Both the position numbers and the translations under genes were made by a program. From Escherichia coli (GTDB taxonomy: Bacteria; Pseudomonadota; Gammaproteobacteria; Enterobacterales; Enterobacteriaceae), in assembly GCF_050320075.1 (NCBI RefSeq), contig NZ_CP190018.1: a stretch of 64,000 bases of DNA; one strand, 5' to 3'. Below, piece after piece: positions 3,483 to 26,603 of this stretch. A model generated the notes under the pieces. That model saw only the letters and a list, made by a program, of their open reading frames with translations, made no database searches and was not told where the DNA came from. The stretch's first letter is position 1. Each line of letters starts with the position of its first letter.

Positions 3483-3778
3483 GTGTATATCTTATTGATA
3501 AACGTCGACGTGGGCAACAAATACCACCTGTAGGAATTCCGAATCACACATGGTTTTGCGTACTTGATATCGATGGTATGGATGCGTTGGTTGACACTCG
3601 TCATTACTGCGATACCGCAACAGCTACTCCGGCGAAAGCAAAGAAAATGGCTGCTCTGATAGAAAACTGGACTCCACCTGATGGTTGGTGCAATGGGAAT
3701 GATCGAGATTGGCATGAAAAAATGAAGGGCTATATCTGCGATTTCTTACGTAAATGCAACGGATTCAGGGTGATGTGA
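3480..3778 (+). CDS. Hypothetical phage protein (GTG start)
   Basis: ORF overlapping the previous stop; start placement uncertain. Confidence 0.4.
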
Positions 3779-5671: not shown

Positions 5672-5995
5672 GCAGAACGCAAAGCCGCGCAGCGCGCTCG
5701 GCAGTCCGCCGCCGGTGAGCGCAAAATTGAACTGGTGCTGGATAAGCAGGAGCAGGAAATGCTGGAGCGTAACTGTGCCACGCGTCGCCCCGGGCGTGCG
5801 CCTTACGAATTTGGGGAGTATATAGCGTTACTGATCCGCCAGGATGATGCACGCGTGCGCGGGCGTATAAAATCGATTAGCAGAAAACGTTGCGGTAAGT
5901 GCGGCGAGAAAGTTCCCGTTAATTCATGCCCGTGTAATGGTGACTCGCAATGCTGGGTGACTAAAGGCTGGCATGAAACGAAATTAATAGTGTGA
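5657..5995 (+). CDS. Hypothetical protein with C-terminal Cys cluster (CGKCGEKVPVNSCPCNGDSQC); possible regulator
   Basis: ORF 5648..5995, likely GTG start at 5657; stop TGA lies inside the GTGACATGTCAC palindrome. Confidence 0.4.
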   Translation: MAKSPAERKAAQRARQSAAGERKIELVLDKQEQEMLERNCATRRPGRAPYEFGEYIALLIRQDDARVRGRIKSISRKRCGKCGEKVPVNSCPCNGDSQCWVTKGWHETKLIV

Positions 5996-6003
5996 CATGT
6001 CAC
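5992..6003. repeat. Perfect 12-bp palindrome GTGACATGTCAC (copy 1)
   Basis: Read directly; overlaps the stop codon at 5993-5995 and precedes the terminator at 6045. Confidence 0.9.
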
Positions 6004-8232: not shown

Positions 8233-8259
8233 AGCCAGCTCATCGGCTGGCTGTTTGTG
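8233..8259. terminator. Bidirectional terminator hairpin
   Basis: AGCCAGC-TCATCG-GCTGGCT flanked by T-rich runs on both strands; ends + strand terminase transcription and the minus-strand gene 8273..8644. Confidence 0.6.
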
Positions 8260-8268
8260 ACATGTCAC
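8257..8268. repeat. Perfect 12-bp palindrome GTGACATGTCAC (copy 2)
   Basis: Read directly; between the stop of minus gene 8273..8644 and the terminator hairpin. Confidence 0.9.
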
Positions 8269-8272
8269 GGTG

Positions 8273-8644
8273 TTATTGCTCGCTTAACTTCTGCTTCAGC
8301 AAGTAACCTTCAAGCATCCAGATTTTGTTTACAGCATTCTGCCGGGCAATCTTCCGACCAATTTCCGCATCAAAGTTTTCCGGGCTTGCACAGGCGCTCT
8401 CTCCGGTGACGGTGAAGCCGTTGCGCAGCACCAGAACGCAGAACGTCAGCAGAGAAAGTGATTCGTGCGGCTGGTAGTTTACCTCTCCGCCAGTATGTTT
8501 CGCTTTTATGGCTACGCCAAAGACACCATCTTCTGCTGTGAAATATGCCTCCTGAGCAATAATGCTCTCGATATGGTCTGGCGTAACGCGCGGCGCGGCT
8601 AAACCTTTAGCCTGAATTTCAGATTCAATGTCTTTGTCACTCAT
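8273..8644 (-). CDS. Hypothetical protein, opposite strand (moron-like)
   Basis: 123 aa ORF on the minus strand between terminase and the tRNA, with its own terminator; family not recognised. Confidence 0.5.
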   Translation of the reverse strand: MSDKDIESEIQAKGLAAPRVTPDHIESIIAQEAYFTAEDGVFGVAIKAKHTGGEVNYQPHESLSLLTFCVLVLRNGFTVTGESACASPENFDAEIGRKIARQNAVNKIWMLEGYLLKQKLSEQ

Positions 8645-11253: not shown

Positions 11254-11546
11254 CAGATTACGAAGACGATCAACTGAAAGAAGAAAACGCCCGTAAGCAA
11301 CGTGACATGGCACAGCGTGAAATTGATGACATTCGCTTTGTCATGAGCTGTGAACAGGGGCGTCGGGTTGTCTGGTCGGTACTGGAGAAAGGCCGTGTGT
11401 TTTCCGCTATCTCGCCGATGGACGCTATGGCAATGGCATTTAATGAGGGGCAACGCAATCTGGCGCTGGAACTGTTTCAGCGCGTTATGGCGCATTGCCC
11501 TGAACAGTATTTGAAGATGGCCAAAGAGGCCAGTGAACAGGAGTGA
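11250..11546 (+). CDS. Hypothetical head-morphogenesis protein
   Basis: 98 aa ORF overlapping the portal stop. Confidence 0.45.
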   Translation: MTDYEDDQLKEENARKQRDMAQREIDDIRFVMSCEQGRRVVWSVLEKGRVFSAISPMDAMAMAFNEGQRNLALELFQRVMAHCPEQYLKMAKEASEQE

Positions 11547-25092: not shown

Positions 25093-25464
25093 ATGAACAG
25101 AATTATATTAATGATTATTCTTATGCTTTTAGCTGTAAAATCTTTTGCAGATACTACCTCACCGTTAATGATTCAGCCTAAAAATGGGGAAACACTGGAG
25201 GACTCTAAAAAGCATACAATGGAATATTTTGGATGTATAAAAGGGCAGGCCGTAAAATACGCTAAGACAGGAGAAAGTGTTGATTCTATATCCAAAGCTT
25301 CGGTTGTGTCATGCGAGTCGTACATACAAAAGATTGCTGAATCAAATATATACTATTTAAATTCCTCTCAAGACGGTAAGCGGAAATTTATTGGAAGGCT
25401 TAAATCAGATGGTGAAAATTTAGCAACGAAATTTGCTATGGATGAAAAGCTAAAAAATAAATAG
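25093..25464 (+). CDS. AT-rich moron: small secreted/periplasmic protein (signal peptide MNRIILMIILMLLAVKSFA)
   Basis: 123 aa; visibly lower GC than flanking genes; N-terminal signal-peptide-like segment. Confidence 0.55.
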   Translation: MNRIILMIILMLLAVKSFADTTSPLMIQPKNGETLEDSKKHTMEYFGCIKGQAVKYAKTGESVDSISKASVVSCESYIQKIAESNIYYLNSSQDGKRKFIGRLKSDGENLATKFAMDEKLKNK

Positions 25465-25471
25465 GTGACAC

Positions 25472-25768
25472 ATGCAAGCGATAGGATTCATTGTTTATAT
25501 CGTCGTTGGTCTTTTTCAGTTGGCAGCAATTATGGCTGGGCTTGAATCATGGTGGGGATTGCACTGGATAATTGCAGCCCCCATTGCTTTCATCGTGAGC
25601 TATATTCCATTTGTTGGAGCGATTGTTGGTATGGTTGGTGCTGTGGATGTATGGCGGTGGGAGTGGTGGCAGGCTGGCCTTCTCTTCTTTGGTGGGATCA
25701 TCTTTGCTATTGTCTGCGGTGGAATGTCATCATTTTTCGAACGGCTATCATTCAGAAAAGGAACGTGA
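25472..25768 (+). CDS. Small integral membrane protein (about 3 TM helices)
   Basis: 98 aa, hydrophobic segments; stop TGA inside the GTGACATGTCAC palindrome. Confidence 0.55.
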   Translation: MQAIGFIVYIVVGLFQLAAIMAGLESWWGLHWIIAAPIAFIVSYIPFVGAIVGMVGAVDVWRWEWWQAGLLFFGGIIFAIVCGGMSSFFERLSFRKGT

Positions 25769-25776
25769 CATGTCAC
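25765..25776. repeat. Perfect 12-bp palindrome GTGACATGTCAC (copy 3)
   Basis: Read directly; overlaps stop 25766-25768; followed by a terminator. Confidence 0.9.
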
Positions 25777-25800
25777 AGGCCGCTTTCGCGGCCTTGTTTT
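25777..25800 (+). terminator. Rho-independent terminator
   Basis: AGGCCGC-TTTC-GCGGCCT followed by TGTTTT. Confidence 0.65.
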
Positions 25801-25961
25801 TAACGAATGCCACCGCCACCCGGGCGGGAATCCGCAGAACGCCCACCGCAGCGGGAGCCGTCAGCGGCAGTATCGCTGTCGTGCTGACAACGACCGGCAA
25901 AGGCCTGAGTTGAAGCTACCAGAGACAACAAAACGAACAGTGCAGCAAATGCTTTTTTCAT
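25800..25961 (-). CDS. Candidate small secreted peptide, 53 aa (signal peptide MKKAFAALFVLLSLVASTQAFA + 31-aa Gly/Ser/Asp-rich part with 2 Cys)
   Basis: Internal ATG of track ORF 25800..26033; sigma70-like promoter on the minus strand (TTGACG 26002-25997, 16-nt spacer, TATAGA 25980-25975); weak RBS. Confidence 0.3.
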   Translation of the reverse strand: MKKAFAALFVLLSLVASTQAFAGRCQHDSDTAADGSRCGGRSADSRPGGGGIR

Positions 25962-26030
25962 TGTGAAATTTCCATCTATAAGCCACCTCAATGTGGCGTC
26001 AATGAGTGTAGCACTGACTTTTGTTTCGTC

Positions 26031-26054
26031 CACAAAAAAGCCCGCAGCGCGGGC
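26031..26054 (-). terminator. Rho-independent terminator ending the minus-strand accessory operon
   Basis: GCCCGC-AGC-GCGGGC immediately after stop 26055-26057, followed on the minus strand by CTTTTTTGT. Confidence 0.7.
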
Positions 26055-26603
26055 TTACTTTTCTTCAGGTTTGTTGTCTTCAGATTTCTTCTTGATGCTT
26101 GGTTTTTGTCTAAGAACGAAAATACCAGCCACTGCAACAACTGTACCGATCACTGTGCCAGCTAGAACTTCATGACCTGTTAAACCTAATAATGTTGCAC
26201 AAGCTACTGTAAAAATAGTTGCACTCAGGCCAAACCACTGCCCACGTTTATCTCTATTAATAGCCCCGTCAAGTGCCTTTTCCTCCATTTTCTGGCGGTG
26301 AGCAAACTCCTTCTCCGTCAGCTGGAAGATGCGTTCGGGGGCATCAGGTAAAATATCCTGATACCCGCGAAGCAGATAGGGGGGAGGAAGCGGACCCTGA
26401 AACGCATGGTGAGCGACAACTATCTCCTGAATTTCAGGGCGATCAAGAACTCTTGTGAAGGCATCTGGGTGTTGAATGATCTCGTTACTTAGCCCTTCCT
26501 CAACTTCCTCGAACTCAGTTTCTTCGTTATCACTTGGTTGCCCAATAGATTTTTGCATATTTGTCGAAGGACATTCCTTTAGCTTCTGGTTTTCCTCTTG
26601 CAT
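26055..26603 (-). CDS. Membrane protein: acidic N-terminal soluble domain plus C-terminal TM helices (possibly DUF2335-like)
   Basis: 182 aa; hydrophobic stretch WFGLSATIFTVACATLLGLTGHEVLAGTVIGTVVAVAGIFVL near the C-terminus; start 26603 or 26558. Confidence 0.5.
   Translation of the reverse strand: MQEENQKLKECPSTNMQKSIGQPSDNEETEFEEVEEGLSNEIIQHPDAFTRVLDRPEIQEIVVAHHAFQGPLPPPYLLRGYQDILPDAPERIFQLTEKEFAHRQKMEEKALDGAINRDKRGQWFGLSATIFTVACATLLGLTGHEVLAGTVIGTVVAVAGIFVLRQKPSIKKKSEDNKPEEK

Follow-up and report, generated by a model that had tools for sequence, protein, structure and literature searches.

A terminator-flanked mini-gene in an epsilon15/phiV10-like prophage of Escherichia coli encodes a predicted exported two-cysteine peptide belonging to a widespread mini-domain

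We analysed a 64 000-nucleotide (nt) stretch of Escherichia coli contig NZ_CP190018.1 (assembly GCF_050320075.1), referred to below as the window, and in particular a mini-gene of 53 codons that lies on its minus strand between two terminator-like hairpins. The window contains an epsilon15/phiV10-like (Uetakevirus) prophage. Comparison across phages, plasmids and genera establishes that the mini-gene is real, that the unit from hairpin to hairpin is mobile and that the product belongs to a family of proteins sharing a mini-domain of about 27 amino acids (aa). That it is a real, exported small-protein moron, that is, an extra gene carried between the functional modules of a phage, can be stated with high confidence. 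The mini-gene is already catalogued and uncharacterised, and it is an example of a moron that exposes an unnamed mini-domain. The peptide of the window is, by sequence comparison, the minimal stand-alone form of that widespread uncharacterised mini-domain.

The mini-gene and its predicted exported product

The coding sequence (CDS) is identical to that of RefSeq protein WP_000708858.1, which is annotated in E. coli YZLc1-3 (100% identity), and the precursor matches PHROG 14503 over its full length (residues 1–53 against profile positions 1–53; E = 2.3e-40). The PHROG is named ‘membrane associated protein’ and the RefSeq/NCBI entry ‘transmembrane anchored protein’; the copy in phage TL-2011b is gp43 (YP_007001994.1). 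Literature searches by name, accession and sequence motif returned no paper on the function of the WP_000708858.1/PHROG 14503 protein. A 77-aa version starting at a GTG at 26033, which appears in a mechanically compiled list of open reading frames (ORFs), was rejected because the extension is not conserved; it would also span the region of the promoter and, further upstream, the terminator's T-run.

A search with the single sequence found 57 clusters of homologues in Escherichia, Shigella, Klebsiella, Citrobacter, Cronobacter, Franconibacter, Pectobacterium, Dickeya and Salmonella. A profile search with the stand-alone precursor gave 1040 clusters, with homologues of 48–55 aa, and added Raoultella, Enterobacter, Pantoea, Kosakonia, Kluyvera, Mesorhizobium, Rhizobium, Methylobacterium, Microvirga and Devosia, so that the family spans at least 15 genera and resides in prophages and plasmids of Enterobacterales and Alphaproteobacteria. 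The gene is present in 449 of 5426 complete E. coli genomes (∼8%, about 1 in 12). Disruption of the ORF in close relatives had been named as an outcome that would speak against a gene, and the reverse was found: 426 of the 5426 genomes carry it essentially full-length, the sampled E. coli records annotate it as a CDS and the frameshifted variants are few and are singletons.

Selection on the protein was estimated over a core of 25 codons in nine cassettes from different genera. The proportion of synonymous differences (pS) is ∼0.71, which is saturated, against a nonsynonymous proportion (pN) of ∼0.07, part of which consists of Ser/Arg six-fold codon switches with the residue retained. Pairwise ratios of nonsynonymous to synonymous substitution (dN/dS) for the core, a check that had been proposed beforehand, are mostly 0.02–0.05 and indicate strong purifying selection. 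A scan of IMG/VR yielded only copies with 100% amino-acid identity; the finding that all 22 polymorphisms fall at third positions is thus biased by selection of the sample and was not used as evidence. The conservation of the ORF exceeds chance, and on these comparative data it is a genuine protein-coding gene under strong purifying selection.

The original prediction had left open whether the segment encodes a secreted peptide or is no gene at all, citing a weak ribosome-binding site. That site is indeed weak in this copy, with only a GGA core, a point in favour of a chance frame in an intergenic spacer or in a structured or antisense RNA. Homologues in other contexts have strong Shine–Dalgarno sequences (AGGAGG, GAGG, GAGGA or AAGGA), and the weak GGA is therefore best regarded as a local feature rather than the sign of a pseudo-ORF. 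Codon-level conservation despite saturated synonymous sites, the 1040 homologue clusters and an Rfam scan of the region that returned no match likewise favour the gene, and the chance that the frame is not a gene is practically negligible. Of the two readings left open, a gene for a secreted peptide is thus the one supported.

The minus-strand ORF has the anticipated signal peptide and 31-aa part rich in Gly, Ser, Asp and Arg with two cysteines. Sequence rules predict export by the Sec pathway and cleavage by signal peptidase I after Ala22, given a basic n-region, a hydrophobic h-region and small residues at −3 and −1. Among 125 short family members, position −3 is A, S, V, G or T in 121, position −1 is A, S or G in 113 and position +1 is G in 117, and the conserved domain begins exactly at +1 of the predicted site. 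When members from different genera are aligned, the signal peptide is seen to drift, whereas the mature part hardly changes, with the pattern G-N/R-C-Q-H-D-x-D-T-A-A-D-G-S-R-C-G-G-R-S-A-D-S-R-P-G-G and near-invariant positions at G23, C25, H27, D30, A32 and D34 through G49; the tail that follows the core of ∼27 residues is 0–4 residues long and varies among members. A variable leader ahead of a near-invariant mature part has the appearance of the classic signature of an exported protein. AlphaFold2 is confident only for a helix at residues 2–22 of the 53-aa precursor, and the model was left out of the fold search because this confidence is confined to the signal helix.

Although the name ‘transmembrane anchored’ implies an anchor, the sequence points to a signal peptide that is cleaved off. 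Were the anchor reading correct, the uncleaved 53-aa protein would sit in the membrane and its periplasmic two-cysteine tail would modulate a sensor or transporter of the inner membrane, much as MgrB acts on PhoQ. MgrB is a 47-aa PhoQ regulator with two essential periplasmic cysteines. It resembles the mini-gene product in size, in its N-terminal hydrophobic segment and in having two periplasmic cysteines 10–12 residues apart, and the NCBI family name and the single AlphaFold2 helix at residues 2–22 point the same way. MgrB retains its anchor and lacks an A-x-A site, however, and the two are not homologous. In the family studied here a canonical A-x-A site is conserved right at the domain boundary, conservation is lowest in the hydrophobic segment, contrary to what is usual for a functional anchor, and the domain recurs at the C-terminus of many larger, soluble exported proteins without an adjacent anchor. 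We regard an anchored regulator as quite unlikely and retain the cleaved, exported peptide.

Two other assignments of the precursor were rejected. A bacterial lipoprotein would need a lipobox, which is missing: the sequence at the site is AFAGRC, and Arg or Asn stands between Gly and Cys in almost all members. An Excalibur or DxDxDG calcium loop (PF05901) gave no Pfam match at E ≤ 1, and the motif here is DxDxxxDGxxCG, not DxDxDGxxCE.

A mobile cassette and its putative control elements

The window was aligned with phiv142-3, TL-2011b, EC.W1-9 and phiV10 and with Klebsiella and Cronobacter loci. Near-identity is confined to the unit from the upstream hairpin (AGCCCGC...GCGGGC TTTTTT) to the downstream hairpin with the adjoining palindrome GTGACATGTCAC, and the DNA outside is unrelated; phiv142-3, TL-2011b, EC.W1-9 and the window thus hold one cassette in unrelated flanks. 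Among 80 copies from IMG/VR we counted at least ten types of upstream flank and at least eight of downstream flank. In the viable phage phiV10 all but some 25 nt at the 3′ end of the mini-gene are gone; this remnant and the terminator are fused to the 3′ end of a Bro-N gene (locus record 2540–2562), a deletion scar which indicates that the cassette was formerly present there.

The carriers comprise at least five unrelated phage architectures as well as small plasmids. In podovirus prophages of Klebsiella and Cronobacter the cassette stands where the ejection-protein operon ends, and these operons include a protein with an SLT domain. Siphovirus prophages of Pectobacterium and Dickeya have it beside a MuF_C polymorphic-toxin gene. 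It also occurs behind relB/yafQ; in the interval between lysis genes and terminase; 3′ of the Q antiterminator in a prophage on a Rahnella megaplasmid; as the final gene of a cI–Rap1a operon; and in prophages or integrative elements of Alphaproteobacteria. The mini-gene is also found on a MOBP plasmid of 3.36 kb, as the sole annotated gene that does not serve mobilization. Such sites are textbook ones for a moron.

Phage morons were reportedly defined by Hendrix and colleagues on genes such as lambda bor and lom and those of HK97 type; morons are described in PMC3573123. The cassette resembles them as an extra gene between functional modules, oriented opposite to the late operon, with terminators on both sides and a promoter-like element of its own, and in being absent from a similar phage, the close relative phiV10, and reused among unrelated flanks at module boundaries. 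It differs from known morons in its product family, and its promoter activity and its expression from the prophage are putative: two candidate promoters are seen, and a TAnnnT hexamer is kept in relatives. The hairpins and the reuse among many flanks bear out the view of a terminator-insulated cassette. It is probably an autonomous moron that moves by recombination among temperate phages and plasmids.

The control elements had been described as a sigma70-like promoter with a GCCAC/GTGGC inverted repeat in its spacer. The two hexamers (TTGACG and TATAGA) and the repeat are present, and it is their role as a promoter that is probably wrong. They are not kept in the Klebsiella, Cronobacter and Pectobacterium cassettes, a consensus promoter scan of the window did not call the site, TATAGA lacks the T at position 6 (the −7 T) and the resulting leader would be only ∼7 nt long. 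The preferred promoter candidate is the extended −10-like element TGcTACACT, ∼30 nt upstream of the earlier assignment. A TAnnnT hexamer lies 31–50 nt ahead of the ATG in every cassette that has its own upstream region, taking the forms TAAACT, TAAAAT/TATAAA, TATGAT, TACGCT, TATACT and TATAGT in the relatives. In six Uetakevirus-type leaders the distance from hexamer to hairpin is 5–7 nt, and the hairpin starts at the predicted +1. With TGcTACACT as the promoter, the concern that the leader is very short disappears.

For the same six sequences, a small sample, RNAalifold gives the inverted repeat as a 5-bp helix in which three of the five pairs have changes on both sides with pairing kept. The hairpin occurs as GCCAC/GTGGC, CCAC/GTGG, ACCACC/GGTGGT, GGCCAT/ATGGCC, GCCGTC/GATGGC and CCGC/GCGG, and 96.7% of the helix cells are paired, compared with 17–60% when the partners are slid. 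Such compensatory changes argue that the repeat is transcribed, and pairing that persists while the sequence changes looks like RNA structure rather than an operator. The repeat is most likely a stem–loop at the 5′ end of the mRNA, a kind of structure known to stabilise E. coli mRNAs.

Terminator-like hairpins stand on both sides of the mini-gene, as had been claimed. The upstream one is kept with the cassette in E. coli and Klebsiella, and the DNA beyond it differs. The left one appears from its sequence to be the terminator of the convergent late (ejection-protein) operon. The T-run of the left hairpin is only on the plus strand and that of the right hairpin is on the minus strand, so both would stop transcription entering the cassette. 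With their T-runs facing outwards as insulation, neither obviously serves to terminate the mini-gene itself, whose mRNA would have the left hairpin at its 3′ end but no U-tract.

The palindrome at the left edge is kept beside the cassette in E. coli and Cronobacter loci. There are three exact copies of it in the window (5992–6003, 8257–8268 and 25765–25776), against 0.17 expected, and a copy with one mismatch at 11302–11313. The copies at 8257 and 25765 come immediately after a terminator hairpin, where a minus-strand ORF interrupts the plus-strand late operon, and the copy at 5992 lies just 5′ of the small terminase gene. The palindrome could be a regulator site or a joint for recombination between modules. 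Coordinates of the cassette and of two neighbouring genes are listed in Table 1.

Table 1. Features of the mini-gene cassette and adjoining genes (window positions)
Feature	Position	Strand	Remarks
98-aa very hydrophobic protein	25472–25768	+	PHROG 3075; holin-like match weak
Perfect palindrome GTGACATGTCAC	25765–25776		Abuts left hairpin; cassette edge in most contexts
GC-rich hairpin, T-run on plus strand	25777–25794	+	z = −4.3; left cassette edge; kept with cassette
CDS, 53-aa precursor MKKAFAALFVLLSLVASTQAFA followed by GRCQHDSDTAADGSRCGGRSADSRPGGGGIR	25800–25961	−	ATG 25961–25959, stop TAA 25802–25800
Predicted mature 31-aa peptide GRCQHDSDTAADGSRCGGRSADSRPGGGGIR	25803–25895	−	Two-Cys mini-domain (Cys25, Cys38), then variable tail
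Predicted signal peptide, codons 1–22	25896–25961	−	MKK, 13-residue hydrophobic core AFAALFVLLSLVA, STQAFA (Ala at −3 and −1)
Shine–Dalgarno core GGA	25971–25973	−	9 nt ahead of ATG; weak
Earlier promoter candidate TTGACG, 16 nt, TATAGA	25975–26002	−	Hexamers 26002–25997 and 25980–25975; from sequence
Inverted repeat GCCAC-ATTGAG-GTGGC	25982–25997	−	Arms GCCAC 25997–25993 and GTGGC 25986–25982
TGcTACACT, extended −10-like, preferred promoter candidate	26005–26013	−	43 nt ahead of ATG
Upstream hairpin AAGCCCGCGCTGCGGGCTT with T-run	26030–26056	−	Right cassette edge; hairpin 26038–26056; predicted to terminate the DUF2335 gene transcript
DUF2335 membrane protein	26055–26603	−	PHROG 3996, filed under morons

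The mini-domain and the possible role of the peptide

A profile of the mature part was searched against 1.84 billion representative proteins and gave 194 clusters at E ≤ 1e-3, in proteins of 42–372 aa. The domain (∼27 aa) has the consensus G-N-C-x-x-[PD]-x-D-x-A-x-D-G-S-R-C-G-x-R-[SA]-A-x-x-R-P-G-G. Of 150 domain copies, 97 are C-terminal and 20 directly follow a signal peptide, and a few proteins have two copies. None of the Pfam and NCBIfam models covers the mini-domain, and sequence searches of the PDB with three profiles matched no solved structure. Weak matches of the peptide to HxsA3 and MarB were dismissed as noise from the signal peptide.

Companion domains were identified in 101 longer proteins. 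They include T2SS-T3SS_pil_N (4), SH3_3 (3), the secreted DNase DNase_NucA_NucB, PG_binding_1, PG_binding_2, Rap1a, DUF4124 and a cytoplasmic zinc ribbon followed by a membrane span; as judged from these annotations, the company is largely extracytoplasmic and partly linked to the cell wall. Rap1a genes also adjoin the mini-gene in two unrelated contexts, and one Rap1a-domain fusion was recorded; this single fusion protein was not located in two batches of ten domain bearers or with phmmer.

An extended form of 65 aa has flanking helices and two extra cysteines (C-x-C ... C ... C-Y), in the order helix, GNCPCPYxxAxNGSRCGGRSAYSRPGG, xxPxCY, helix (for example P0093, P0120, P0142, P0184, P0188 and P0189). 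In the four-cysteine form the first and third cysteines, the core pair, are invariant, and the second and fourth are present or absent jointly in 19 of 23 sequences, as two disulfides would predict. The pairing predicted for the P0184 type is C23–C36 and C25–C52. The AlphaFold2 model of the extended form is very confident (predicted local distance difference test score of 93) and has no neighbour among solved structures or the viral models of BFVD, which makes this form a candidate new domain family.

A further group of bearers is lipoprotein-like with a C-terminal mini-domain (P0060, P0061, P0063, P0095, P0098, P0130, P0137, P0143 and P0166). Ahead of the domain these proteins have a basic stretch, an Ala/Gly-rich hydrophobic segment and a C-x-x-H/N-x-C-G motif. 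Their topology is puzzling, as a lipobox with a single span would place the mini-domain intracellularly. P0096 weakly matches the NCBIfam ‘lipo-invert C-terminal anchoring domain’.

A pathway consistent with these features can be outlined as follows. The flanking hairpins would stop transcription from the neighbouring operons, and TGcTACACT, a weak promoter probably of the extended −10 type, would give rise to an mRNA with a 5′ stem–loop. Translation would give the 53-aa precursor, which would be exported via Sec and cut by signal peptidase I after Ala22 (AFA/G), releasing a 31-aa peptide into the periplasm, where a predicted Cys25–Cys38 disulfide would close a loop of 12 residues. The peptide may then bind a conserved component of the bacterial envelope, the best guess being the cell wall or an enzyme that acts on it, and may benefit the lysogen or the element, for example by excluding incoming phage or by protecting against wall-degrading attack. 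Target and benefit are conjecture. The occurrence of the gene in unrelated phages and in plasmids of many hosts places its role outside the life cycle of any single phage, and the near-invariance of the mature sequence across unrelated phage types and across hosts, Escherichia through Pectobacterium, suggests that the target is probably a conserved envelope component rather than something phage-specific. The cell-wall-related domain company and the Rap1a neighbours and fusion are the reasons for looking to the envelope or wall. We advance a role in envelope protection tentatively, as possible rather than probable.

Several observations weigh against this proposal. The peptide matches no PADLOC defence model, and no partner gene is conserved across the contexts examined. 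The link to the cell wall amounts to a handful of co-occurrences among the 101 proteins. Some domain-bearing proteins have a signal peptide and then a hydrophobic stretch ahead of the domain, a topology that, read naively, puts the domain in the cytoplasm, so that the extracytoplasmic assignment is not airtight. AlphaFold2 confidence is low for the mature part of the 53-aa precursor, and the Shine–Dalgarno sequence of the window copy is weak, as noted above. Finally, in the single expression study of a carrier prophage, that of phiv142-3, the serum-induced genes include orf10 and not orf11, which is the mini-gene (PMC7724020). In the same study the neighbouring orf10 (52 aa) was deleted, and it reportedly raises serum resistance and expression of K1 capsule genes in the avian pathogenic E. 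coli strain DE142 (PMC7724020). The orf10 gene (locus record 3507–3665 of phiv142-3) is not at this position in the window.

A sharper form of envelope protection would make the peptide a Spackle-like superinfection-exclusion factor that inhibits the SLT or lysozyme domains of phage ejection proteins, or the wall-hydrolase effectors of type VI secretion systems. The gene adjoins ejection-protein operons that encode, among others, an SLT-domain protein, and the Rap1a-family neighbours in two contexts and the Rap1a fusion fit such a role; Rap1a proteins (PF18602) are type VI immunity proteins that, like the peptide as predicted, are periplasmic and sit on mobile elements, and differ from it in fold and family. 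Precedents for a block of phage entry in the periplasm also exist. The periplasmic T4 protein Spackle (Sp) acts in this way. The HXS effector HxsA, also periplasmic, blocks phage entry and is linked to peptidoglycan binding (PMC13128918). Small, signal-peptide-bearing, periplasmic and protective against incoming phage, both proteins offer a functional analogy only: the peptide has no sequence relationship to either and is much smaller, and its exclusion activity is a conjecture. Identity with an HXS effector was rejected, as the HxsA3 model scores 12.9 bits against a cut-off of 65 and the radical S-adenosylmethionine genes hxsB and hxsC are absent from the contexts examined. With no PADLOC match, and with the gene found also on the 3.36-kb plasmid and in phages of unrelated architecture, which means that any exclusion target must be generic, this specific form is unlikely.

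Small cysteine-containing peptides exported from mobile elements, such as STa and STb, invite a different comparison, namely with an exported toxin, a bacteriocin or a host-directed peptide of the heat-stable enterotoxin or microcin kind. The signal is of Sec type with no double-glycine leader, and genes for an exporter or for immunity are absent from the neighbourhood, on the 3.36-kb plasmid as well. Carriers among plant-associated and soil genera and Alphaproteobacteria argue against a target in an animal host. A class II microcin or bacteriocin was rejected on the same Sec-type signal, on unrelated neighbours and on the plasmid, which otherwise has mobilization genes only. A toxin is highly unlikely.

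The temperate phages that carry this small secreted peptide under its own control might also be thought to use it as arbitrium-like phage–phage communication reporting lysogen density. The contexts are wholly different and contain no conserved adjacent receptor gene, the entire 27-aa domain is conserved rather than a short C-terminal signal, and the domain is fused to many unrelated proteins; communication of this kind seems exceedingly improbable. Conservation of the cleavage site, the missing partner genes and the presence of the domain in larger proteins weaken the anchor, toxin and communication readings.

Taking envelope protection further, the two-cysteine unit of ∼27 aa, here written G-N-C-x4-D-x-A-x-D-G-S-R-C-G-x-R-S-A-x-S-R-P-G-G, might be an unrecognised extracytoplasmic domain with its own fold, and its bare form a generic periplasmic shield of the mobile elements of Proteobacteria, perhaps binding the wall or blocking hydrolases and so hindering the entry of phage genomes or wall-degrading effectors. 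This generalization is doubtful at present.

The prophage setting and significance

The nearest phage records to the Uetakevirus prophage are phiv142-3 and HEMP4, and the region is identical (100%) to a stretch of an E. coli chromosome. The last products encoded by the plus-strand late operon are an 850-aa virion protein (PHROG 684), a 123-aa exported protein of low GC content and the 98-aa hydrophobic protein. The minus-strand block that follows towards the tailspike consists of the mini-gene, the DUF2335 membrane protein, a 113-aa protein, an Ant/Bro-N anti-repressor and a 90-aa protein. All the genes that separate the ejection proteins from the tailspike are accessory cargo.

The 123-aa ORF of the late operon (25093–25464, plus strand) has a signal peptide and a GC content of 34–37%, compared with ∼55% around it, and Pfam and PHROG searches gave it no assignment. 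It sits where a Klebsiella relative carries a Rap1a-family gene; that it is itself a Rap1a relative was rejected, because similarity is undetectable. It is probably another moron. A second 123-aa ORF (8273–8644, minus strand; PHROG 322, unknown function) is placed directly behind the large terminase gene, with a terminator hairpin and palindrome arranged as at the mini-gene cassette.

Proteins shorter than 60 aa are the least understood cargo of prophages. The peptide described here is well defined by comparison alone, its mature sequence being near-invariant across bacterial orders, and it is short enough for chemical synthesis, which makes a direct search for its target feasible. If it has no measurable effect, it is an ordinary uncharacterised moron; if it is a true protection factor acting at the envelope, prophage-encoded defence would gain a very compact mechanism.

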